NCBI GenBank assembly: GCA_964394075.1
Contig: CAYMVI010000004.1
Span: 28,563 to 92,562 of the forward strand
Reading direction: 5' to 3'
Length of the DNA: 64,000 nucleotides
Source of the DNA: an uncultured Eubacteriales bacterium
GTDB lineage: Bacteria > Bacillota > Clostridia > TANB77 > UBA1234
Shown: piece by piece, positions 16,706 through 45,268 of the stretch
How positions within the stretch are numbered: the first letter of the stretch is position 1
Layout of the letters: each line of letters opens with the position of its first letter
Notes under the pieces: generated by a model
Told to the model about the DNA's origin: nothing
Database searches by the model: none
Seen by the model: only the letters and a program-made list of their open reading frames with translations
Translations under genes and position numbers: made by a program

Positions 16706-16782
16706 ACACTACCTCCTTGTACTCTCTGTACACATTTGTTTAGTTAAATATATGTACGAGCAAAAGGATTATTCCATCAAAA

Positions 16783-16822
16783 CACAAAAGACGGGATGAA
16801 CCTTAAGTTCATTCCCGTCTTT
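16783..16822 (-). terminator. Intrinsic terminator after small lipoprotein gene
   Basis: GACGGGATGAAC-CTTAA-GTTCAT(T)CCCGTC hairpin followed by T-run on minus strand. Confidence 0.6.
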
Positions 16823-16839
16823 GCATCAACAGATATGCA

Positions 16840-17192
16840 TTATCCCGGCAAAAGAAGTTCCTTCTTTACCAGTTCGCGATCTTCATTGTAACCGCGGTAC
16901 AGAATTACTGTAATAGTATCGCCTTCCGAAACATTCTCATATAACGCTTGATTATTAAAGGTTTGTGCCATGTCTTCGTATACAATTGTGACATTATACT
17001 GGGCTGGATGAAACTGAGGTGACATCATAGTTACCTTGCCGACGCGCATAGGAATATATGTGGTATAACTGCTCTTATATTCTTTTTCCGTCACGGTGGC
17101 AGTCACTTCAAAAGTTTCCTCTTCTACGATTTTTTGACATCCTGCCAAAAGGATACACAAGATGATGGTTGATACTAAAATTATCCGTTTCA
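16840..17192 (-). CDS. Small lipoprotein, unknown function (GC-enriched gene)
   Basis: MKRIILVSTIILCILLAGC lipobox signal; strong RBS GGAGGA; about 40% GC by eye vs ~30% flanks. Confidence 0.65.
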
Positions 17193-17316
17193 TTTTTTCC
17201 TCCTCAAATTTAGTTGGTGGATAGACGTACAGAGATATTGCCAAGAATATTTTACACTTGTTTACATAAAAAATCAAGTGGTATTAGCACTACAACCCTA
17301 CATTTTATCTATACAA

Positions 17317-17343
17317 AAAAGCCTCACAAAAGTGAGGCTTTTA
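17317..17343 (-). terminator. Bidirectional intrinsic terminator (downstream of GT4 gene)
   Basis: AAAAGCCTCAC-AAAA-GTGAGGCTTTT. Confidence 0.7.
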
Positions 17344-21250: not shown

Positions 21251-24200
21251 TTATTTCATTCCTGTTAATTCTTTGAATACTTTCAATTGCATTTTTCTTT
21301 CTTTGCCATCTGGTATTCTATTTATTTCTGTAATTAGTCCGTTTATTTGTTGCTGATTCAAAAGAAGTAATGTTGCTTCTAACTCATTATATTGCGCAAG
21401 TGATAACGATGCATGTTTTGAAAGTAAGCGTAAAGCTTGTTTTGGTAATAAGTTTGTAACCATAATTACAACTTCACTATCCATTTCAGCTCTGCTTGCA
21501 GGACTATCAAAATAATTATCTTTTGCAACACTTCTTGCCCTATAATAATTATCTAACATTACGCTTTCATAAATTAAGATAATTCTTAATTTTCTTAAGT
21601 CCGTATTCGGAAGCGAATGTCCGCCTGATGCATCTTTTACAATTTCAAGTCCTTGCTTATTTTTACCACGCATTATAATATAGTTTGCCTCTTCTTGTGT
21701 CGTTACTTTATTATCAACAAAGTAATCCGCAAATAATACTGCTTTTCTTTGATCCAAGAAATAGAAATCTTTATCATCCATTTCTGAATTTGTAATAGCT
21801 TCAAAGATTTTCAAAATCTTATTACCGGTTCTGTCTTCAGCAATAATCTCTTTCAAACCTTCTTCAACTAATTGTTTTTCTTTTCTGATAACAGTGCTTA
21901 ACTTCTCAGCCAAACCATACTCTTCCATAGAACCTTCCCATCTTAAAGCTTCTCTCAAGTAAGTAACGATTTCTGTATTGTAATCGTTTAGCTGATTAAT
22001 AGTTACTATTTCATCATTCTTAAGCACAACACTTCTACCTAATGCTTGCAAATATGGATCTGTAAATACAGCTTCTGGTTCTTTTTGAGCTTCTTCCAGA
22101 GCTTTTCTTTCTTTTTCCTCTTCTTCAAGTCTTAACTTCTCTGCTTCTTCAGCCTCAACTTGAGCAACCAAATCAGCATCAATAAACTTCTGTGCATCAG
22201 GATTGAAGTATGCTTTATTCTCTGGTTTCTTTTCGCCAAAATTATCAGCAGTAAAGTATTGTATTACAACATTTTCTATCGGATTTTCATCTACAATGAT
22301 ATCAGAAGGATTGTTGTGTGAATAACGCCATGTATCATTGTTATTATCATAAATCACTTTAATAACTGGCTTTGGTGCAAACCTTGTACCAATTTGCGCT
22401 TTTACAATTACATCATCTTTTAATGTTCTACCATCTGCCGTTTGAAGTTTAATTGTAACGATAGCTTTCTTTTCTTGATATATAACGTTGATAATATTAT
22501 TGATACTTCCAACAGTAAGTTTGATTGGTTCTGTTCTGTTGTATAACCATCTTCTGTTTTGTTCGTCAACAAATTCTCTTTCAACCTCAGGCACAAATTC
22601 ACTACCTACTTCTAAGTTAAGTAGATCCGTCTTCTTGATAGTATTTCCTTCAGTATCTTTATAACGTACAGAGATTTCAGCTTTGGCAACCTCATACGTC
22701 ATAATGATTTCATTTTCTCTATTATCTTCTTTTACTGTAATCGGATCTATCTTATCATTTAAAAGTTGCCACTGAATTCCGTTTCTGTCAGTAACAAATC
22801 TAATAGGATCCTGTCTATAAACAGTTCCAACAGGCATATCTATTTCCATATCATCTTTTAATTTATTACCATCGATATCTTGGAATGATACTTTTACTTT
22901 TGTAACAAGTGATTCATAAGTTAAGTCAAAGAAGTTTATAACCTGATTGCTGCCTAGTGGCACTTCTTTTACTTTTATTGTTTGTGGCTCACATTTTACA
23001 AATTTATATTGTTTAGATTCTTCATCCGAAATTCTTTGATCTATATCAGGTTTAAATGTACTACCCAATTGTGCTTTAACAATCTTGTCTTTCATAATTG
23101 AGTTACCATTCTTTGTAATAAATCTCAAGTTAACATTTACCTTCAACGGAATATACAAGAATTCGATTACATTATTTTTATCTTCTTCATTAACAAGAAT
23201 TTCTTCTTTATTAGCAGCTTTAAACTCCCAAACGCGTCCATCTGAACCTTCAATAACGTTATCAGGTGATATTTTGTGAGCACTACCAATTTGAGCAAGA
23301 ACTTTCTTTGGTTCTTTCAACTTATTGTTGTCTTGATCTTTATATTGATATATAACAAAAGCTTTTTCTTGTTCATAAGCAAGTACAACAACGTTTTCTT
23401 TCACGTCTTTACTTACTCTTATTGTTGCTTTACTATTTACGTTATAAGTCCATTTCTTGTTAGCTGCGCCAGAGATTTTTTCAATAATTTCCGGTGTGTA
23501 ATTAGAACCAATTTGCGCTTCATATTGATCGTACTGTTTTATTTCTGCGCCAAGAGGATCTACATATCTTACAACAACTTTATTCATAGACGGTTTGTAA
23601 TAAAGTTTAGTGAAATTCTGATCTAACTTCACAGTAACTGGAAGCGGATCAATCTTTTTGCCACCGCCGAAAAGTTTGTTTTCAATTCTACAATCTGCAA
23701 TCCATTCTCTGCCAAATTCATCTTCAACATACTCTTCAATCTTTGGTAAAAATTCTGTACCAACTTGTACTCTTTCTACCTTAGGTTTTATAATGTCGTT
23801 TTCAGCTGCATCTTTATAGTAGATTGTTACATCCACTATATATTTATCATATAACACACTGATTGTATTTTCGTTTGGCTTTCTTGAGACTTTTAATGGT
23901 TTTAAAGATTCTTGATCTATTAACCATCCCATCTTGTTTTCATCAACAATAACAAGCTGTGCTGTAGGATTAAAAGTGCTACCAATTTGAGCTTTAATTG
24001 TTTTCCATGAAGCAATTTGTTGCAACTCTTTATTAAAGAATTCCATTCTAACTTCTGCCATATCTTTTTTGTATGAAATAATAATGTTATTTTCCTCTTC
24101 ATTTTCAGAAACAACAAGTTTGCTTTCATTAATTTCAGTAAACAACCACGCTTTGCCATCTGGATCAATAAAGTTTTGTTTAACTCTAACTTCCACATTT

Positions 24201-27200
24201 GTTCCAACCTGGTATTTGTTAATAACTTCTGGAGCAATTAAGTCGCCTTCTTCATCAACGTAGCTAATTGTAACTTCTGATAACAATTTTTCATATCTAC
24301 ATGTAATTACATTATCTCCGTCCTTAACTACAAACTCTGGCATACTTGCAGTTTTATATTCCCATTTTGCCCCATCTTTATTTGCAACAACTTTTTGTAT
24401 ATCAAGTTTGTAACGTTTACCAACTTGAATCTTTTCTTCCTTCGCAGTTGTTATTTCTTTATTTTCTTCATCAACATATTTTGTAATAATTTTTCCAAGT
24501 AACGGTTCATAAATATTAACCACTAAATTGCCATCTTCTTTTACAATTTGTGAATCCATATTAGATTTTACAAATTTCCAACCGATACCTTTTGAATCAT
24601 TAAACTTATTTGCTGCCTCAATACGAATTTCTTTTCCTACTTGAATATCTTTTGTAACATCAGGTTTTAATTGCTGTCCATCTTTGTTTTGATATTTCAT
24701 CAAAACTTGTGCTCTGCGCTCTTCATAATTTAATACAATGATGTTTTCTTGTTCATTTTCTTTGGCAATTATATTGATATTTTCATCGCCAATATAATTC
24801 CACTCCCATTTATTTTTATCAATTAATCTTTGTCTAATATTAGGTACATATATTCCACCCAAAGCAACTGTTGTAATAATATCTTCAACAACACTTTTTT
24901 GTGTTTTAACATCGATGTGTTTAACTAATATTTTAGCTTTTACTTCACCATAGATAAATTTAAATTTATTGCCTTGTTCTCTTACTGTCAAAATCTTAGG
25001 TTCAGTATTTTCTAGCATCCAACGTTGCCCATTCATGTCTGTGATTTTATACAGTGTGTTTGTGTCATACTCAGCACCTATTTGCCACGGAAGTTCTTTT
25101 TCTTCTAGAAGTACATTTCCAAAAGCATCATAAAAACTAATTCTAACATTTGTAGTTTCTTTATCATAATAAATTGAAACAACATTTTCTTCTTCATGTT
25201 TTCCAACAACAAGCGTTGGAATTTTAGATTCATCAATAACCCATTTCTTACCGTCTTTTCCAGTAATCTTTTTAATTGGATCATTTTTATATTGAGTACC
25301 TGCTTGCACAACTTGTGTCTTAGACGGAATAAGTTCTCTTGATTCCGCATCAAAATATTTAACTGTTACTTTTGCCATTAAAGGTTCATACTTCAAAGTT
25401 ACTACATTTTCTTGAACATTTTCCGAAATGACAATCGATTTTCCAGCATCAATTAATGTCCAAATTTTACCGAAATTATCTGAGATTTCATTGCGACTAG
25501 CATAGTTGAAAATACCACCAATTTGAGCTTCTTCAAAGACCGCATCTCTAATCGCTCTACCATCTTCCCTTATAAATTTCAATGACGCTTTAGCAAGTCT
25601 TGGCTTGTATACTGCTTGTAAAATATTTTGAGATTCATCGCTATTAACAACAATAGAATCTGTAACAGCATTTCTATATTCCCACTCTTTGCACTCATAG
25701 TCATATAACATTTTTTCAAAATTTACTGAATGTGTTTTTCCTATTTGTACAAAAGAAACCTCTTCATCTACAAGATTATTTCCATTTTCATCAATAACTC
25801 TTGTGATAACTTTTTGTTTTGCTTCATCGTATAGCAAATTAATTTCATTATTTACTCCAGTTTGCACCACAATATAGTCTACAGAAGCTTCTGAATATAG
25901 CCAACCTAATCCATCCATATCTACGATATAAGGAACAGATTGTGCCCTGCACATTTTACCAACCGCACTTTGTATAATTTGTGGCGGTGCTATTTCTTTA
26001 CCATTTTTGTTCAAATATTTTACAACAACATCCGCTCTATCTATGTCATACACCAATATAATTTTATTTCTTTGTTCATCATCTGAAATAACCAATCTCG
26101 ATGGTCTAGCACTTTTTAGTTTCCACTCATCACCTTTTTCATCAGTAAAATGAGCTTTTGATTCCATATCAAAAACAGAACCAACTTGCCAAATCTCAGA
26201 TTTTTCTTCAGTTAAATTTTTACCATCTCTATTAATTATAGAAATGTGCACTCTAGCATATCTTTCGATGTATTTTATCTCTATAATATTTTCTGAAGGA
26301 TCTGTTTGCACTACAAAATTAGCAGGGTTTTCATTTTCAATCAACCACTCTTTTCCTTCACTATCATTAATTATTGGAATAACATCAGGTATATATATAG
26401 TATTTGGGAATAAATTTCCGATTCTATTTTCTTTTAATACTACACCTTTTGAATTAACGTATCTAACAGTTAATGTAGTCGAACCCGGTAACGCATTTGC
26501 ACTCGATGCAATATAACTTGTTGAACCTCCAAAATCACCTTGCGAATTGCCAAAGAAAGAATCTTCTGATTCTTGGTTCGCATTTCCACCAACATTAGTA
26601 CCATTAAACATCACTACTTGTCTTCTATCTGGATTACCTAAAGGTATATAAATATCTACTTCGATATTTGGTACAGGCAAAGAATCTGCGCCACTATAAT
26701 TTACATCTTCGTAAATATATCCTAATAAGTCTGGAATACAACTATCATCAATAATCGTCTCTCTCTTAATAATAACAGCCATTGCATTAACATTAAAATC
26801 AGCAATAGATTGTTTTCTTATAACATTACCTTTTCTATCTGTATATTCTAACTTCGTTCCAATCTTTGTATTGTCTTCCAAGACATTCTCTACCAACTTA
26901 TATTTGTATCTTCTTCCCACATTATCTTCGATTGTTACATATAATCTTTCTTCGAATTCGGCAGGATCAGTTATGATTCTATATCTGTATCTTAGTGGTT
27001 CAAACGTATCTGTTCTAACCTGCAAATTGTTATAAATCAAATCTGTAGACGGACACACAAGTTCAGGATTAAGTTTTAATAATATCTCACGAAGTGCATT
27101 AACATCTAACTCTTGGCTAGATTCAAGTCTAGATCTTCTCAAAATTTCTTTTGCTACATTATCTACTTTTGAATCATCTTCAAAAAGTTCTGAATACATT

Positions 27201-28081
27201 GATTTTTCGGAAGAACGAGTAGCAACAAATATTGCAATTTCTCCTTGTGAACCTCTAGTCTTTTCTGACCAATAATAAGAAATATGATTAAGTGGAAAAT
27301 CTACTCTTGGTGGCAACTCATTTATTTTTACATAAGGATCATTTGTAACAATTCCAGCCGATACATTTTTAGATTTTATTTTTATTTGAACATCACGTTC
27401 AAAAATTTCTAATCTATTCGTTTTTGTGTTTATATATCTTATTGAATATGCATTTAAATTTTCAGCATATTTTGCAGGAGTATCATAATTTCTAATCAAT
27501 GGATTCAAATCATTTACAGCCATATCGTCAATTACGAAATCCGACAATAACATAGTAAGTATATCTCTTACTTTTCTATCATTTAAAACAATCTTTTTAC
27601 TATTCAAGAAAGCTTCATAATAATCTTTTGTTATCGCATCTCTTTCAGGTTTATAAATTTGTTCATAAGTCATGTTGTTATACATGTTCATTGTTTTTTG
27701 TGACGGAACATACTTAACGATTTTTATTTTTCCTTCAGCAGTTACACCAACAATTGCATTTCTTTTAGACAATGTATAATCAGCAGTAGGTATTCTTGTT
27801 TTTACTGCAGACTCTGTTGAAGAAGGCGTAATATCTCCCTCTAAAACAGAACAACCTAACATTTCTTCTCCTATGTTTAAGAAAGTTTGTATTATATCAA
27901 CATTAGGTTCTGAATACTCTTTTATGACAAAAATATTTTCTTCGATTTTACTTTCATCAAGCTGTTCTATTCTATTATCAACAACAGTCAAATCTAATTT
28001 ATCTAACGCTGCATTTATTGACATGCTGTTATATCCTAAAGCAATAAGTTTATCTCTAAGCAGAGTTGCACTTTTTTTCAT
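21251..28081 (-). CDS. Giant (~2276 aa) cytoplasmic tandem-repeat protein: ~500-aa N-terminal region, >=17 consecutive ~85-90-aa beta-rich modules, coiled-coil/acidic linker, ~300-aa C-terminal domain
   Basis: Uninterrupted ORF; likely ATG 28081 (MKKSATLL) preceded by AAGGGGTGAA; no signal peptide/TM; repeat consensus [VI]x[VI]xYxDxxGxx[IL]...Q[VI]G...DxxGxxW...[VI]x.E..EN[VI][VI]..Y. Confidence 0.8.
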   Translation of the reverse strand: MKKSATLLRDKLIALGYNSMSINAALDKLDLTVVDNRIEQLDESKIEENIFVIKEYSEPNVDIIQTFLNIGEEMLGCSVLEGDITPSSTESAVKTRIPTADYTLSKRNAIVGVTAEGKIKIVKYVPSQKTMNMYNNMTYEQIYKPERDAITKDYYEAFLNSKKIVLNDRKVRDILTMLLSDFVIDDMAVNDLNPLIRNYDTPAKYAENLNAYSIRYINTKTNRLEIFERDVQIKIKSKNVSAGIVTNDPYVKINELPPRVDFPLNHISYYWSEKTRGSQGEIAIFVATRSSEKSMYSELFEDDSKVDNVAKEILRRSRLESSQELDVNALREILLKLNPELVCPSTDLIYNNLQVRTDTFEPLRYRYRIITDPAEFEERLYVTIEDNVGRRYKYKLVENVLEDNTKIGTKLEYTDRKGNVIRKQSIADFNVNAMAVIIKRETIIDDSCIPDLLGYIYEDVNYSGADSLPVPNIEVDIYIPLGNPDRRQVVMFNGTNVGGNANQESEDSFFGNSQGDFGGSTSYIASSANALPGSTTLTVRYVNSKGVVLKENRIGNLFPNTIYIPDVIPIINDSEGKEWLIENENPANFVVQTDPSENIIEIKYIERYARVHISIINRDGKNLTEEKSEIWQVGSVFDMESKAHFTDEKGDEWKLKSARPSRLVISDDEQRNKIILVYDIDRADVVVKYLNKNGKEIAPPQIIQSAVGKMCRAQSVPYIVDMDGLGWLYSEASVDYIVVQTGVNNEINLLYDEAKQKVITRVIDENGNNLVDEEVSFVQIGKTHSVNFEKMLYDYECKEWEYRNAVTDSIVVNSDESQNILQAVYKPRLAKASLKFIREDGRAIRDAVFEEAQIGGIFNYASRNEISDNFGKIWTLIDAGKSIVISENVQENVVTLKYEPLMAKVTVKYFDAESRELIPSKTQVVQAGTQYKNDPIKKITGKDGKKWVIDESKIPTLVVGKHEEENVVSIYYDKETTNVRISFYDAFGNVLLEEKELPWQIGAEYDTNTLYKITDMNGQRWMLENTEPKILTVREQGNKFKFIYGEVKAKILVKHIDVKTQKSVVEDIITTVALGGIYVPNIRQRLIDKNKWEWNYIGDENINIIAKENEQENIIVLNYEERRAQVLMKYQNKDGQQLKPDVTKDIQVGKEIRIEAANKFNDSKGIGWKFVKSNMDSQIVKEDGNLVVNIYEPLLGKIITKYVDEENKEITTAKEEKIQVGKRYKLDIQKVVANKDGAKWEYKTASMPEFVVKDGDNVITCRYEKLLSEVTISYVDEEGDLIAPEVINKYQVGTNVEVRVKQNFIDPDGKAWLFTEINESKLVVSENEEENNIIISYKKDMAEVRMEFFNKELQQIASWKTIKAQIGSTFNPTAQLVIVDENKMGWLIDQESLKPLKVSRKPNENTISVLYDKYIVDVTIYYKDAAENDIIKPKVERVQVGTEFLPKIEEYVEDEFGREWIADCRIENKLFGGGKKIDPLPVTVKLDQNFTKLYYKPSMNKVVVRYVDPLGAEIKQYDQYEAQIGSNYTPEIIEKISGAANKKWTYNVNSKATIRVSKDVKENVVVLAYEQEKAFVIYQYKDQDNNKLKEPKKVLAQIGSAHKISPDNVIEGSDGRVWEFKAANKEEILVNEEDKNNVIEFLYIPLKVNVNLRFITKNGNSIMKDKIVKAQLGSTFKPDIDQRISDEESKQYKFVKCEPQTIKVKEVPLGSNQVINFFDLTYESLVTKVKVSFQDIDGNKLKDDMEIDMPVGTVYRQDPIRFVTDRNGIQWQLLNDKIDPITVKEDNRENEIIMTYEVAKAEISVRYKDTEGNTIKKTDLLNLEVGSEFVPEVEREFVDEQNRRWLYNRTEPIKLTVGSINNIINVIYQEKKAIVTIKLQTADGRTLKDDVIVKAQIGTRFAPKPVIKVIYDNNNDTWRYSHNNPSDIIVDENPIENVVIQYFTADNFGEKKPENKAYFNPDAQKFIDADLVAQVEAEEAEKLRLEEEEKERKALEEAQKEPEAVFTDPYLQALGRSVVLKNDEIVTINQLNDYNTEIVTYLREALRWEGSMEEYGLAEKLSTVIRKEKQLVEEGLKEIIAEDRTGNKILKIFEAITNSEMDDKDFYFLDQRKAVLFADYFVDNKVTTQEEANYIIMRGKNKQGLEIVKDASGGHSLPNTDLRKLRIILIYESVMLDNYYRARSVAKDNYFDSPASRAEMDSEVVIMVTNLLPKQALRLLSKHASLSLAQYNELEATLLLLNQQQINGLITEINRIPDGKERKMQLKVFKELTGMK

Positions 28082-28224
28082 TTGTTCACCCCTTGATTTA
28101 AAATCAATTACGCACATAATAATACAAATAATATTATATCTTAATGAGTATTTTTTTCAATACTTTTACTTATACTAATTAAAAATTTCAATCAAACTTT
28201 TTTGAGTTTTTCGAAAGGATTTTT

Positions 28225-28764
28225 ATGCAACCAAAATTTTTAATTTTAAAATTTTATTCTAAGGATTTGTTTAATCTATTTTCAAAAAAAATTTCAGAAT
28301 ATCCACACATAATTTTTTCTTCAAAAAAATTTAATGGAACTTATAACGTGATTGTAAAAACGAATAAATATTTCGAATCTGTTTTTCAAGATGATTACGA
28401 CAACAAATTTTATACATCCTATATTTACCTGTACACTAGCATTTCCATAGTTTTATCAGAATTTATAATCGATAATTTTGAACTAAAATTAGCACATCAA
28501 ATTCTTTCCACAAAATATAAATATTTGAGTCCATATTCAAAAAATAAATTAAAAAACATTTTACACTTTGTTTTAGATTCAAATTACCCAAGTGCATCTT
28601 CTAAAAATTTATTTTTGTATCGAAAAGATTTAATACTTAGAAAATTACTTTTGAATTTTAGAAGAGCAAATTATTTGTATGTTGATTACTTTATTTATTT
28701 CAAATTAACCGACTATTATTTACACTTAGAAAATATAATTTCAAAAACATATTTGCGTTATTAA
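28225..28764 (+). CDS. Hypothetical Tyr/Lys-rich protein (179 aa)
   Basis: ORF with AGGA RBS; no recognisable motifs; AT-rich, so coding status moderately uncertain. Confidence 0.4.
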   Translation: MQPKFLILKFYSKDLFNLFSKKISEYPHIIFSSKKFNGTYNVIVKTNKYFESVFQDDYDNKFYTSYIYLYTSISIVLSEFIIDNFELKLAHQILSTKYKYLSPYSKNKLKNILHFVLDSNYPSASSKNLFLYRKDLILRKLLLNFRRANYLYVDYFIYFKLTDYYLHLENIISKTYLRY

Positions 28765-32996: not shown

Positions 32997-33073
<77 letters not shown>

Positions 33074-33076
33074 TGG

Positions 33077-33110
33077 AACCTCGTAAATCGTTGATTTACG
33101 AGGTTTTTTA
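33077..33110 (+). terminator. Intrinsic terminator after tRNA-Arg
   Basis: AACCTCGTAAATC-GTT-GATTTACGAGGTT + TTTTT. Confidence 0.7.
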
Positions 33111-33124
33111 TTGTTTTGTTGAAT

Positions 33125-33152
33125 TTACATAATACAAAAAGTGTGGTATAAT
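33125..33152 (+). promoter_or_regulatory. sigma-A-type promoter for HD-domain gene (TTACAT-16-TGgTATAAT)
   Basis: -35 TTACAT 33125-33130, extended -10 TGgTATAAT 33144-33152; GGAGG RBS before ATG 33197. Confidence 0.5.
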
Positions 33153-33196: not shown

Positions 33197-34009
33197 ATGA
33201 ACATCAATGTAAGTGCAACACTTTGGCAATTTGCCATCCAGAACACCCCGGAAATTCTGTTTGGCCCACCCGCTAGTAGCGGCATTGGCGCCAAAACCAC
33301 ACACATCCACAACGTCACTCAAATCGGCATGCAGATTCCTCATGATGAGCTAAACGATGGCTTACTCGAGATCTGTCTGCAGCTGCATGACATCGGTCGC
33401 AGCGTCCAGTGGAATATCCAACATTCCTTCAATGACAGGCTCGTTAACCACAGATACATCGCTCTGCAGATGATTGAGCAGTACATCCGTGAAAATAACG
33501 TGACTCTCACTGAGGACTGGAAAATCGTTACCGATGTTATTCAGTATCACGGTGTGGCTCACATGTATCCGCTGGTTGATGCAGCTTCTCTTCCCTATGT
33601 CAAGATCGTTTCTCAGGCAGACGACATTGAAAACGGCTGTCTTGGCGCTCTTGGCTACCTGGAAGACGAAAAAACTCGCGATGACAAAGGTTATATCGCA
33701 GCCGCTCCCTACCAGGATCAAGGATACTGCAAGCCCGAACTGCTTGGCTATCTCGAAAGAGGTGAAAAGTTCAACAAGATGGAGCTCTGCAAAACTTATG
33801 CAGAATACTTTGTCTTCGCTGCTATGCTGGCTGTCAATGCCTGCATTCACCACGGCGATATCGCCAAGAAGGCTATGACCACTCTGTGCTACACCGACAG
33901 CGAGGGACAGTACGATGCAGTCGATGGATACTGCAGAATTTTCCGCAAGCATCTTCACCCTGAGGATGCTGAAAAAGCCTGTGCTATCATGATTAAAATG
34001 TGCAGGTAA
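33197..34009 (+). CDS. HD-domain metal-dependent phosphohydrolase (GC-rich, likely horizontally acquired)
   Basis: H...HD...H...D motif series (HIHN, LQLHDIGR, SQADDIEN); about 50% GC vs ~30% flanks; own promoter and terminator. Confidence 0.7.
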   Translation: MNINVSATLWQFAIQNTPEILFGPPASSGIGAKTTHIHNVTQIGMQIPHDELNDGLLEICLQLHDIGRSVQWNIQHSFNDRLVNHRYIALQMIEQYIRENNVTLTEDWKIVTDVIQYHGVAHMYPLVDAASLPYVKIVSQADDIENGCLGALGYLEDEKTRDDKGYIAAAPYQDQGYCKPELLGYLERGEKFNKMELCKTYAEYFVFAAMLAVNACIHHGDIAKKAMTTLCYTDSEGQYDAVDGYCRIFRKHLHPEDAEKACAIMIKMCR

Positions 34010-34015
34010 GCGTAC

Positions 34016-34050
34016 AACGCAAAAAGAACCGCCCCACAAAGGCGGTTCTT
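34016..34050. terminator. Bidirectional terminator (HD gene / spoIIE)
   Basis: AAGAACCGCC-CCACAAA-GGCGGTTCTT with T-runs on both strands. Confidence 0.7.
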
Positions 34051-34056
34051 TACTTT

Positions 34057-41701: not shown

Positions 41702-41777
41702 TGGTGCACCACCGGGGACTCGAACCCCGGACCCACTGATTAAGAGTCAGTTGCTCTACCAACTGAGCTAGTGGTGC
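41702..41777 (-). tRNA. tRNA-Lys (anticodon CTT)
   Basis: Reverse complement GCACCAC TA GCTCAGTTGGTAGAGC A ACTGA-CTCTTAA-TCAGT GGGTC CGGGG-TTCGAGT-CCCCG GTGGTGC A CCA. Confidence 0.8.
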
Positions 41778-41917
41778 ATACGAGTTATATTATAGCACAA
41801 TTCGCTTTCGTGTCAATCATTATTTTGTCTACTTTTCTATCATTAAAGATAGTTATTTCAACTCTTGAAACATGAAGAAACGCCCCCAAAACGGGAGCGT
41901 TTCAAAAACTCATTTGA

Positions 41918-42475
41918 TTATTCAGGTCTTTCGATTGCCTTCTGATTTGACAAGATTGTTGCGTTTCCGAAGAACGAAACCTCCAAGGAAAGTACATCAC
42001 CAACACCCACATCAAGCCAAGCTTCCTTCTCGACAGTGTATTTTACCTCTTCACCATCTTGATTTTTGCCGTGAATATAGTGGTTCTTTCTTTCAGAGTC
42101 CACACGCTCATTTTCAGCCAAAGTATACTCCGGAAAATGAGGTTCGTAGTCGTCTCCAGTTTCCGTTACAGTGCGGTCATATTTCCAACGAAGAATCTCG
42201 TAATAATATTTTGTCCGATACTCATAACCGTCGAAGTTGCCTTCATCATCGTACTTTGTCTTGTAAATCTCACGTTTCTTTTTGATAAGTTCTGCCTCAC
42301 TCGGCAAAGACCAACCGCTTTCTTCGCACAGTACCTCTTTCTCGATTTCAACCGAGTATTCCCAGCTAATGCCGGTAACGGTTACTGTTTCCTCGCGAGT
42401 CATACAGCCGGTGCATGCAAAAAGCACCATCAGAACCATGAAAATCACAAAGATCTTCCGCCATACATGACACAT
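41918..42475 (-). CDS. Lipoprotein, unknown function (GC-enriched; N-terminal mature region similar to lipoprotein at 16840-17192)
   Basis: MCHVWRKIFVIFMVLMVLFACTGC signal/lipobox, then ...EETVTVTG...EY as in the other lipoprotein (CQKIVEEETFEVTATVTEKEY); start codon uncertain (ATG ~42475 vs upstream GTG 42547). Confidence 0.55.
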   Translation of the reverse strand: MCHVWRKIFVIFMVLMVLFACTGCMTREETVTVTGISWEYSVEIEKEVLCEESGWSLPSEAELIKKKREIYKTKYDDEGNFDGYEYRTKYYYEILRWKYDRTVTETGDDYEPHFPEYTLAENERVDSERKNHYIHGKNQDGEEVKYTVEKEAWLDVGVGDVLSLEVSFFGNATILSNQKAIERPE

Positions 42476-42614
42476 TTTCAAAGCATATTCCCCCAATCGA
42501 AGTATATATTTGTATTTGCTTTTATCTTCAAGTCCAGATTTTATCACGTTTTTCCACTTTTTTCAAGTTAAAGTTCGCTATTTACAAGCATTTCCGCAAT
42601 TAGGCCCTCGATTT

Positions 42615-43043
42615 TTATAGATATTGCCTTAATTCATTCATAAAATGCTGTTCTAAAACTACAATATCATTTGCAATTCCCATGATTTCTTTAGAAGCCC
42701 CAGCATATTGATTCATGTATCTGCTAACCGACTTTATGCCCATATTGCAACCGTCCATCATAATATCCGCAATCTTTTCATCAGTATTATTCATCATTAA
42801 CTTCATATCCGTACTCATGTTAGACATCGCTCTAGCTACTGGATTAGCGCTTTTCCCGCTCACTCCTATCTCGTCTAACTTTTCATGAATAACACCCAAA
42901 ATCTTAACATGTTCCTCTTCATATTGTTGTAATAAGTTCTTGAAATCTTGTCCAGAAGCATTATCTCTCACTTCTGCAATCCCCTGAATTCCCATTTTTA
43001 CTCCCGAGTCACACTCTTTTAAAAGCTCTATATCGTCTCTCAT
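42615..43043 (-). CDS. Hypothetical alpha-helical protein (142 aa)
   Basis: Clean ORF, moderately GC-enriched; no motif recognised. Confidence 0.45.
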   Translation of the reverse strand: MRDDIELLKECDSGVKMGIQGIAEVRDNASGQDFKNLLQQYEEEHVKILGVIHEKLDEIGVSGKSANPVARAMSNMSTDMKLMMNNTDEKIADIMMDGCNMGIKSVSRYMNQYAGASKEIMGIANDIVVLEQHFMNELRQYL

Positions 43044-43460: not shown

Positions 43461-43493
43461 AAAAACCTCGAATGTAAATTCGAGGTTTTTTAT
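43461..43493 (+). terminator. Intrinsic terminator after tRNA operon
   Basis: AAAAACCTCGAAT-GTAA-ATTCGAGGTTTTT. Confidence 0.7.
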
Positions 43494-44815: not shown

Positions 44816-44845
44816 AAAACCTCGAGATAAGCTCGAGGTTTTTAT
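44816..44845 (+). terminator. Intrinsic terminator after rsuA
   Basis: AAAACCTCGAG-ATAAGC-TCGAGGTTTT. Confidence 0.7.
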
Positions 44846-44957
44846 TTTCTACCTCTTCCTCGAATATATTGACAAAAAGCCTGTCCTTAAAATATACTAC
44901 CCTTACAAACGCATAAACTTATAGTAACGCCACTTAATATTTTAGGAGGGATCATTC

Positions 44958-45230
44958 ATGGCAAGCTCAGACGTTTACTATTCATCAACTACCGGTTACC
45001 CCATCAACAACAAAGCTGACGTTATCAAACTTGTCACCTACACTGGCAGCAGACCTTTCGAGCTTTTCAAGGTTGAGCAGCATGATGCCCAGAACTGGGT
45101 TTATATGATGCTCATCGACAACGATGTTCTGCCTATTGTAGTTTCTGAAGAGCTGGCGCAGTCCATCATCGCCGATCCGGCCATTGGTGGTACCATCGCT
45201 TACAACACGTGGTATGAGCGTCATCGCTAA
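44958..45230 (+). CDS. Small hypothetical protein (90 aa), GC-rich gene
   Basis: RBS AGGAGGG; about 48% GC by eye; followed by GC-rich terminator. Confidence 0.55.
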   Translation: MASSDVYYSSTTGYPINNKADVIKLVTYTGSRPFELFKVEQHDAQNWVYMMLIDNDVLPIVVSEELAQSIIADPAIGGTIAYNTWYERHR

Positions 45231-45236
45231 TTCATT

Positions 45237-45268
45237 CTCCCCCTCGACTATTGAGGGGGAGTTTTTCT
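45237..45268 (+). terminator. Intrinsic terminator
   Basis: CTCCCCCTC-GACTATT-GAGGGGGAG + TTTTTC. Confidence 0.7.

Follow-up and report, generated by a model that had tools for sequence, protein, structure and literature searches.

Genes of atypical GC content are routinely regarded as recent horizontal acquisitions, and amelioration, a model for acquired genes that reportedly goes back to Lawrence and Ochman, is used as a clock. The locus analyzed here raises the question of how such a signal is to be read when it comes from isolated GC-rich genes in an AT-rich genome. Five of these genes, encoding a lipoprotein (L1), an HD-domain protein (HD), a second lipoprotein (L2), a 90-aa open reading frame (ORF), and a DEAH helicase, are located in a 64-kb stretch (GC content 32.6%) of contig CAYMVI010000004.1 from an uncultured Eubacteriales bacterium; this whole stretch is called the window in the following. 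An initial annotation had attributed them to repeated single-gene acquisitions from a higher-GC donor or to a common cassette-delivery mechanism. In our analysis, the five are probably old accessory genes that are unrelated to one another, differ in age, and were acquired independently into variable slots, and a gene-specific GC-favoring force probably keeps their GC excess from decaying. For the helicase, this lack of amelioration has good support, and for HD it is likely.

The host belongs to an uncultured, AT-rich, spore-forming lineage of gut Clostridia. The gene content of the window includes spoIVA, spoIIE, cotJABC, smc, pyk, glgA, and glgP, and exact matches to its proteins were found on metagenome contigs only. 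For comparisons, we used 79 loci from an SMC-anchored scan of species-representative genomes, all of which belong to metagenome-assembled genomes (MAGs) of uncultured "Clostridia / Eubacteriales bacterium" from the guts of sheep, roe deer, goat, rabbit, and human. SMC identity across these loci ranged from 96% down to 43% and locus GC from 25 to 41%. Labels such as L006, L009, L011, L013, L015, and L016 denote individual loci of relatives.

Base composition of the five genes

The GC content at third codon positions (GC3) of the 44 ordinary ORFs in the window was 0.210 ± 0.035, with a maximum of 0.318, whereas the five genes reached 0.40-0.57 (z = 5-10), which bears out the initial annotation in that all five are richer in GC than their surroundings:

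16840-17193, (-) strand: L1; GC 0.39, GC3 0.40, z = 5.4, the weakest outlier of the five
33197-34009, (+) strand: HD; GC 0.48, GC3 0.56, z = 10
41918-42475, (-) strand: L2; GC 0.43, GC3 0.46, z = 7.2
44958-45230, (+) strand: 90-aa ORF; GC 0.48, GC3 0.57, z = 10.3
60312-62552, (+) strand: helicase; GC 0.47, GC3 0.53, z = 9.1

A mild elevation (GC3 0.36) was also noted for a sixth gene at 42615-43043, which encodes a DUF2383 protein. The excess of the five genes was confined to the coding sequences (CDSs), as the 150-bp flanks had only 0.28-0.36 GC and the terminal 90 nt at either CDS end already had 0.34-0.54. Per-ORF GC3 values and a codon table confirmed the atypical composition of all five, which thus show the base composition and codon usage of non-ameliorated foreign genes. 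Codons enriched in the GC-rich genes included CCC, CTG/CTC, CAG, GAG, and AAG, as well as the C-ending codons (NNC) of Asn, Tyr, Phe, and Ile, and the G-ending, generally non-optimal codons were as enriched as the NNC codons. The GC content at first codon positions (GC1) and the share of the amino acids Gly, Ala, Arg, and Pro (GARP) were modestly raised and stable across orthologues of the GC-rich genes, implying that the force acts at the DNA level, beyond the third position alone. The composition-normalized dinucleotide signatures of all five genes were inside the host's own range, in agreement with a long residence.

Special mRNA structure was rejected as a cause of the GC excess, since AT-rich controls showed an equal effect relative to synonymous shuffles: the native sequences folded more stably than the shuffles, with z = -6.6 for the helicase and z = -3.3 for HD, in comparison to z = -5.6 and z = -2.6 for the AT-rich pyk and DnaI controls. 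An embedded structured RNA was likewise rejected, as the only Rfam matches were five tRNAs.

Conservation in related genomes

The helicase comprises 746 aa from the ATG at 60312 of an ORF that opens at 60300 on the (+) strand. Its DEAD, Helicase_C, and HA2 domains all exceeded the Pfam gathering thresholds, and with this DEAD/Helicase_C core plus HA2 it is a DEAH-box, RNA-helicase-like protein of the HrpA/HrpB-like type. As the NCBIfam equivalog scores for HrpA and HrpB were far under the cut-offs (254 vs 546 and 240 vs 723), it represents a distinct short subfamily. Its homologues form a graded identity series from 98% to 39%, and the slot was identical in six lineages (window, L006, L009, L011, L180, and L181), with the order DnaD-like, DnaI-like, 472-aa protein (pilin-like), helicase, 154-aa protein, SbcC-like, SbcD-like, and VirD4-like. 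Identity to the window protein was 92% in L006, 64% in L009, 52% in L011, 46% in L180, and 39% in L181. The GC3 of the gene was 0.53 in the window and 0.51, 0.46, 0.53, 0.48, and 0.41 in the other five, in the same order, with every neighbor at about 0.2; the helicase was thus the sole GC-rich gene of its slot in all six lineages.

The pairwise identity matrix of the helicase correlated with those of DnaD, DnaI, and the 472-aa protein with r = 0.86, 0.86, and 0.95, showing that the helicase co-diverged with its flanks. Between the window and L009 or L011, the proportion of differing synonymous sites (pS) was 0.80-0.82 in the helicase, which is saturated, and 0.51-0.73 in the flanks. In the helicase, and probably also in HD, a GC3 of about 0.45-0.55 was kept even though synonymous sites are saturated between the lineages. 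The composition thus appears to be held away from the AT-rich equilibrium, and the GC excess is then no sign of recency. For a rough two-state calculation, we used a host equilibrium GC3 of 0.2 (an AT bias of about 4:1) and, for the window-L009 split, the synonymous distances of the flanks (1.0-1.6), which were obtained from pS values of 0.53-0.60 with the F81 formula. By this estimate, the ancestor of the helicase would need to have had a GC3 of about 0.9 or higher under neutral decay, and of more than 1 for deeper splits, so that the helicase behaves as if it were at its own compositional equilibrium.

The HD protein has 270 aa and scored 27.7 bits with the Pfam HD model (cut-off 22), which places it in the HD superfamily, and its metal ligands H64, D65, H85, H118, and D142 (H...HD...D) are invariant. 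The AlphaFold2 model had a pLDDT (predicted local distance difference test) score of 94 and gave only weak matches, to YpgQ, PgpH-HD, and HDDC2, and there was no sequence match in the PDB. Sequence and model suggest a divergent HD-domain phosphohydrolase, with weak fold matches to small-molecule HD hydrolases. In the slot between pyk/tRNA-Arg and spoIIE/smc, the gene was found in L016 (85% identity), L013 (74%), and L094 (60%); it was missing from this slot in other relatives and occurred in two unrelated contexts in L092 and L095. In all six places its GC3 was 0.45-0.60, with flanks at about 0.2 and surrounding DNA of 32-33% GC. Between the window (33197-34009) and L016 (10941-11753), HD had a pS of 0.63 (d about 1.5), whereas the flanking genes glgP, pyk, smc, spoIIE, and lemA had pS values of 0.18-0.46 and distances of 0.2-0.8. 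This 2-7 times higher synonymous divergence of HD suggests allele exchange. The synonymous divergence of the flanks itself varied four-fold in this comparison, which hints at a recombination mosaic.

L1 is a 117-aa lipoprotein with a signal peptide and the lipobox LLAGC, and L2 is a 185-aa lipoprotein with a signal peptide and the lipobox ACTGC. A 47%-identical L1 homologue occupied the same glgA..spoIVA slot with a GC3 of 0.47, and L2 was syntenic in L016 (92%) and L013 (63%) with GC3 values of 0.39-0.43; the wider L2 family has 634 representatives. The suggestion that L1 and L2 are paralogues with a common N-terminal motif could not be upheld, as BLASTP gave E = 3 and hhalign a probability of 31% over 18 residues at the C-terminus. 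The 90-aa ORF is positioned directly upstream of cotJA-cotJB-cotJC, had no Pfam, PHROG, PADLOC, or NCBIfam match, and occurred only on contigs of the same species. None of the five genes matched a known defense model in PADLOC; sub-threshold Cas3-like matches (E = 5e-5 to 6e-3) covered the helicase core and residues 38-119 of the HD protein.

These distributions bear directly on age and donor. The helicase, HD, L2, and L1 were all present at the syntenic site in at least one relative. Recency, as implied by the initial annotation, is contradicted by the helicase, which keeps its slot in six lineages at identities as low as 39% and co-diverged with its neighbors, and by HD, L2, and L1, which are syntenic at 60%, 63%, and 47%. 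That annotation had held that conservation as core genes in relatives, or a GC content within the normal range, would speak against its view; the helicase is indeed conserved in this way, whereas the GC content of the genes is far from normal. The higher-GC donor did not materialize either: in a database of 5.8 billion proteins, the HD family comprised only 40 and the L1 family only 5 clusters, and the examined homologues of both were located in DNA of 27-34% GC. No homologue of HD from a recognizably GC-rich source was detected, and neither HD nor L1 had phage, plasmid, or IMG/VR matches, so that no GC-rich donor was found among the 5.8 billion proteins and no phage or plasmid source for HD and L1.

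The slots themselves were variable, with other cargo or none at the tRNA-Arg and tRNA-Lys(CTT) slots of relatives. At the tRNA-Arg slot, relatives had an NlpC/P60 gene together with a 329-aa ORF, or a 207-aa AT-rich ORF (L069), and at the tRNA-Lys(CTT) slot, a GC-rich VanW/SH3 protein with a GC3 of about 0.4 was found in L015 (7104-8288, 394 aa) and L030 (4199-5392, 397 aa). A C-terminal TelA fragment of 148 aa with a GC3 of 0.59 was present beside pyk in L015 (20170-20616). In roughly 1.5 Mb of related loci, comparable GC3 outliers made up about 4% of the ORFs of at least 100 aa. As their functions were miscellaneous (TelA fragment, VanW, ABC transporter parts, radical SAM, AAA, PFK), the lineage apparently takes up GC-richer genes routinely. 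The density of five in 64 kb, which had been considered unusual, is only about 2-3 times that in relatives. Many GC-rich genes of the clade encode hypervariable secreted proteins or lipoproteins; two secreted proteins in the same slot, L017 2613-3716 and L018 3672-4688, were only 35% identical, with GC3 values of 0.38 and 0.59.

The surroundings of the helicase gave several further observations. The window region 53524-63932, a cluster that runs past the window end, was syntenic in the six lineages named above and encodes a TraG-D_C-like ATPase, a protein resembling type IV secretion system (T4SS) pilins, two small ORFs, the DnaD-like and DnaI-like proteins, the 472-aa protein with a pilin-like N-terminus, the helicase, the 154-aa protein, the SbcC-like and SbcD-like proteins, and a VirD4/TrwB-like coupling protein. 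It is bordered by mnmA on one side and by dnaJ and the gene of an S-layer homology (SLH) protein on the other, and has the appearance of a domesticated module for conjugation or DNA transfer rather than of a mobile integrative and conjugative element. Between the DUF1858 and TraG-D_C-like genes, about 0.85-0.9 kb without a called gene (52684-53523; L006 2364-3293) were conserved in relatives. In the window, this gap contains a 145-aa ORF (52993-53430, GC3 0.38) without a family match, and Rfam gave no match there.

Homologues of the short HrpA-like subfamily were also present in the large "viral" IMG/VR contigs L184, L187, and L191 (95-250 kb, 26% GC), with a conserved partner gene downstream. 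The N-terminal approximately 100 aa of the partners in L100 (10031-11440) and L103 (2789-4219) aligned with 31% identity over 106 aa (E = 2e-14), and the L184 partner resembled these two by eye only. In metagenome contigs resembling those of the Candidate Phyla Radiation (CPR), helicase and partner both exceeded their surroundings in GC, and these observations suggest that the two form a mobile module. Several 37-40%-identical helicase homologues in such CPR-like contigs were GC-richer than their flanks. An intrinsic GC richness of the subfamily, which these contigs suggested, was ruled out by 41%-identical homologues on the AT-rich IMG/VR contigs of 95-250 kb, which had native GC3 values of only 0.11-0.13.

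Two other features of the window are conserved in relatives. The YtxC-like ORF at 28225-28764 is an outlier in the opposite direction with exceptionally low GC (0.21 overall, GC1 0.24), and a giant ORF of 2288 aa at 21251-28117, which adjoins the glycogen genes and gave a faint MucBP signal, probably encodes a surface adhesin.

Promoters, terminators, and borders

Each of the five genes was monocistronic, with a sigma-A-like promoter (score 9-11 of 12), a canonical Shine-Dalgarno site, and its own terminator hairpin (-17 to -24 kcal/mol, z = -4 to -6); an upstream TG was present in three of the five promoters. The proposed one-gene units with their own promoter and strong terminator were thus found in all five cases, and the proximity of two of them to tRNA genes was also confirmed, as HD starts 124 bp past tRNA-Arg(TCT) and 141 bp separate the end of L2 from tRNA-Lys(CTT). 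The elements are as follows:

16778..16827, (-) strand: L1 terminator hairpin with T-tract, -24.2 kcal/mol, z = -5.9
17199-17205, (-) strand: L1 ribosome-binding site (RBS) GAGGAGG
17249..17277, (-) strand: L1 promoter-like site, TTGATT-17-TAAAAT
32997..33107, (+) strand: tRNA-Arg(TCT) with its own AACCTCG..CGAGGTT terminator, bordering the HD slot, outside the cassette
33124..33152, (+) strand: HD promoter-like site, TTTACA-17-TATAAT with upstream TG, 11/12
34023..34051, (+) strand: HD terminator hairpin, -17.3 kcal/mol, between HD and the convergent spoIIE-like gene
41702..41777, (-) strand: tRNA-Lys(CTT), bordering the L2 slot
41877..41903, (-) strand: L2 terminator hairpin, -19.4 kcal/mol
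42538..42566, (-) strand: L2 promoter-like site, TTGAAA-17-TAAAAT with TG
44869..44898, (+) strand: promoter-like site of the 90-aa ORF, TTGACA-18-TATACT, 11/12
45237..45261, (+) strand: terminator hairpin of the 90-aa ORF, -19.7 kcal/mol
60203..60231, (+) strand: helicase promoter-like site, TTGACA-17-TACAAT with TG, 11/12
62570..62593, (+) strand: helicase terminator hairpin, -18.5 kcal/mol
33077-33105: AACCTCG/CGAGGTT copy, terminating tRNA-Arg
43464-43487: AACCTCG/CGAGGTT copy, terminating tRNA-Thr at the end of a tRNA-Lys-Glu-Thr cluster
44818-44840: AACCTCG/CGAGGTT copy, terminating rsuA

The five terminator hairpins were unrelated to one another in sequence. The AACCTCG...CGAGGTT hairpin family noted in the initial annotation is real, with three copies in the window against none expected from shuffling, but these copies terminate the upstream tRNA and rsuA genes and not the cassettes. 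The copies behind tRNA-Arg and tRNA-Thr were conserved in relatives, and the tRNA-Arg hairpin was retained in L015, which has no HD. The shared stem could have arisen by convergence on a design of A-tract, GC-clamp, and T-tract or by duplication of a small terminator element. None of the five genes was flanked by direct or inverted repeats above the chance level or had flanking motifs or attC-like sites in common with the others. The ORFs of the window and the annotated contexts in relatives contained no integrase, transposase, or prophage genes.

Origin and maintenance of the GC excess

The different phyletic distributions of the five genes make independent histories, and ultimately a horizontal origin, reasonable. 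In this respect, the idea of repeated independent single-gene acquisitions holds, as the genes are unrelated and two of them are located in variable tRNA-adjacent slots; its assumptions of recency and of a higher-GC donor do not. Arrivals from such a donor that are too young to have ameliorated would account for the strong, CDS-delimited GC3 excess, the patchy occurrence of HD, L1, and L2 among relatives, the other GC-rich cargo of mixed function in these relatives, and the confinement of the 90-aa ORF to one species. We nevertheless consider them quite unlikely, as the helicase, whose synonymous sites are saturated and which co-diverged with its flanks, keeps its position and its high GC in six lineages, HD, L2, and L1 have remained GC-rich at syntenic sites despite their divergence, the search for a GC-rich donor was negative, and the dinucleotide signatures are host-like. 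A common delivery process, be it integron-like attC recombination, moron-like spread, or a tRNA-targeting integrase, that deposits GC-rich single genes within a shared hairpin family is very improbable. Although every gene is an autonomous promoter-gene-terminator unit, two abut tRNA genes, and the AACCTCG hairpin is overrepresented, the hairpins differ between the genes, the AACCTCG copies belong to tRNA-Arg, tRNA-Thr, and rsuA (one being kept without a cassette), there are no flanking repeats, arrays, or nearby integrase, transposase, or prophage genes, and the insertions are of very different ages. This lack of shared motifs, repeats, integrase, and attC-like sites removes the basis for a cassette-delivery mechanism. 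An assembly chimera or contamination, in which foreign GC-rich reads were stitched into an AT-rich contig, might be considered, as the source organism is known from metagenome assemblies, but identical junctions were found again in assemblies from Logan, ENA, and NCBI that are independent of each other and represent different studies and species, which makes this practically negligible.

We propose that the genes would have arrived on separate occasions, in foreign DNA inserted by ordinary illegitimate or homologous recombination, with no common delivery machine behind the five insertions, and would be expressed from sigma-A promoters, Shine-Dalgarno sites, and intrinsic terminators of the host type. 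Afterwards they would have been inherited vertically in place, with HD and L1 probably also having moved to other sites in related genomes. A gene-specific, GC-favoring fixation bias of roughly S = 1-1.4 per site would hold the composition off the AT-rich equilibrium, and its source may be either selection on the nucleotide or codon content of the CDS or a recombination-linked process, namely GC-biased gene conversion (gBGC) or allele import. The abrupt change at the CDS ends and the ordinary synonymous rate of the helicase lean toward selection, whereas the excess synonymous divergence of HD and the hypervariable secreted proteins among the GC-rich genes of the clade lean toward recombination.

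Either source has also been considered as a full explanation. A vertically inherited gene class that is actively held at about 50% GC against the 4:1 AT mutational bias by selection on CDS nucleotide composition, and thus consists of islands by design and not of transfer relics, seems doubtful to us. In that case, the transcripts or genes might evade an AU/AT-directed process (RNA decay, host shut-off, or silencing), or translation might be gated by tRNAs for G/C-ending codons such as the adjacent tRNA-Lys(CUU); a literature search on persistent GC-rich genes in AT-rich genomes gave nothing specific. We regard it as unlikely that gBGC or continual allele import at recombination-hot, fast-evolving genes, a neutral fixation bias and not selection, explains the excess by itself. 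We know of no bacterial gBGC effect that approaches +0.3 GC3, the boundaries match the CDS ends without fading into the flanks, and the synonymous distance of the helicase is not above that of its flanks. Consistent with gBGC or import are the synonymous distance of HD to its closest relative, which is 2-7 times that of its flanks, the many hypervariable secreted proteins and lipoproteins among the GC-rich genes of the clade, such as the L017/L018 pair, the raised GC1 and GARP share, and the fact that the excess falls on GC-ending codons that are not optimal, a pattern reported for bacterial genes that recombine (PMC4450053). Translational selection, by which highly expressed genes would prefer optimal C-ending codons, would fit the near-consensus promoters, the strong RBSs, and the NNC enrichment for Asn, Tyr, Phe, and Ile, but is highly improbable, as CAG, GAG, AAG, CCC, and CTG/CTC were equally enriched and the housekeeping genes of the clade had GC3 values of only 0.17-0.23, including rpsL with 0.17 in a relative.

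Several points weigh against our preferred view of old, independently acquired genes with a persistent GC excess. The distance of about 1.5 for HD in comparison to 0.2-0.8 for its flanks could reflect a continuing import of alleles rather than persistence in place. The saturated distances are lower bounds and the amelioration arithmetic is rough, so that for the shallower splits it is conceivable that the gene has been decaying slowly and in parallel, starting from an ancestor with extremely high GC. Polarized synonymous changes in the GC-rich genes, with L009 or L013 as the outgroup, were balanced (18/24 GC>AT vs 22/29 AT>GC), but as a saturated outgroup gives the same result, we did not use this as evidence. 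The low GC3 of the 41%-identical helicase homologues in IMG/VR also has to be considered, as does a 52%-identical L1 homologue that is flanked by spoVG and pth in a genome with 27.5% GC and has a GC3 of only 0.18. The 90-aa ORF, confined to one species, may be recent, and with no donor identified we can only infer the horizontal origin.

Among known systems, the closest categories are genomic islets and, in architecture, phage morons, while gBGC is the nearest mechanistic precedent. Like genomic islets, the five are single lineage-restricted genes with atypical GC3 and codon usage, patchy occurrence in variable slots, and mixed cargo; in contrast to islets, the GC excess does not decay (helicase and HD have a GC3 of about 0.5 in genomes of about 0.2) and no donor lineage is visible. 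Phage morons are independent promoter-gene-terminator units with deviant GC that are inserted between phage genes (PMC3594210). Our five genes have the same one-gene architecture, with their own promoter and terminator and a composition unlike that of their neighbors; however, they are located outside of phages and prophages, next to glgA/spoIVA, pyk/spoIIE/smc, tRNAs, rsuA/cotJ, and DnaD/DnaI/SbcCD, and neither HD nor L1 has phage or IMG/VR relatives. With integron cassettes and clusters of attC sites lacking integrons (CALINs), they share a single promoter-proximal ORF followed by an imperfect hairpin, but they lack an attC consensus, a shared hairpin, an integrase, and an array, and are scattered, each with its own promoter. 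As in tRNA-adjacent genomic islands, the slots of HD and L2 are located next to tRNA genes, tRNA-Arg(TCT) and tRNA-Lys(CTT), respectively, and vary in content among relatives, but HD and L2 have no integrase, no duplicated tRNA 3' end, and no direct repeat, and the cargo measures 0.6-0.8 kb and not many kilobases. In recombining bacterial genes, gBGC raises GC3 via non-optimal GC-ending codons (Lassalle et al. 2015, PMC4450053), which resembles the codon pattern found here in genes that apparently exchange alleles (HD), but +0.3 GC3 and the sharp CDS limits exceed the described effect, and the helicase shows no excess synonymous divergence.

The helicase, which co-diverged with its neighbors through saturating synonymous change, stays about 0.3 GC3 above its genome. 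If slow decay or repeated import turned out to be responsible, the locus would be an ordinary set of genomic islets. If, however, whole-genome and population data confirm the persistence of the excess, the composition of single genes would be stably decoupled from the genomic mutation bias, which would call for caution in the composition-based dating of horizontal gene transfer. The lineage, with a defined gene set and many MAGs, would then offer a tractable case in which selection on nucleotide content could be told apart from biased gene conversion in bacteria.

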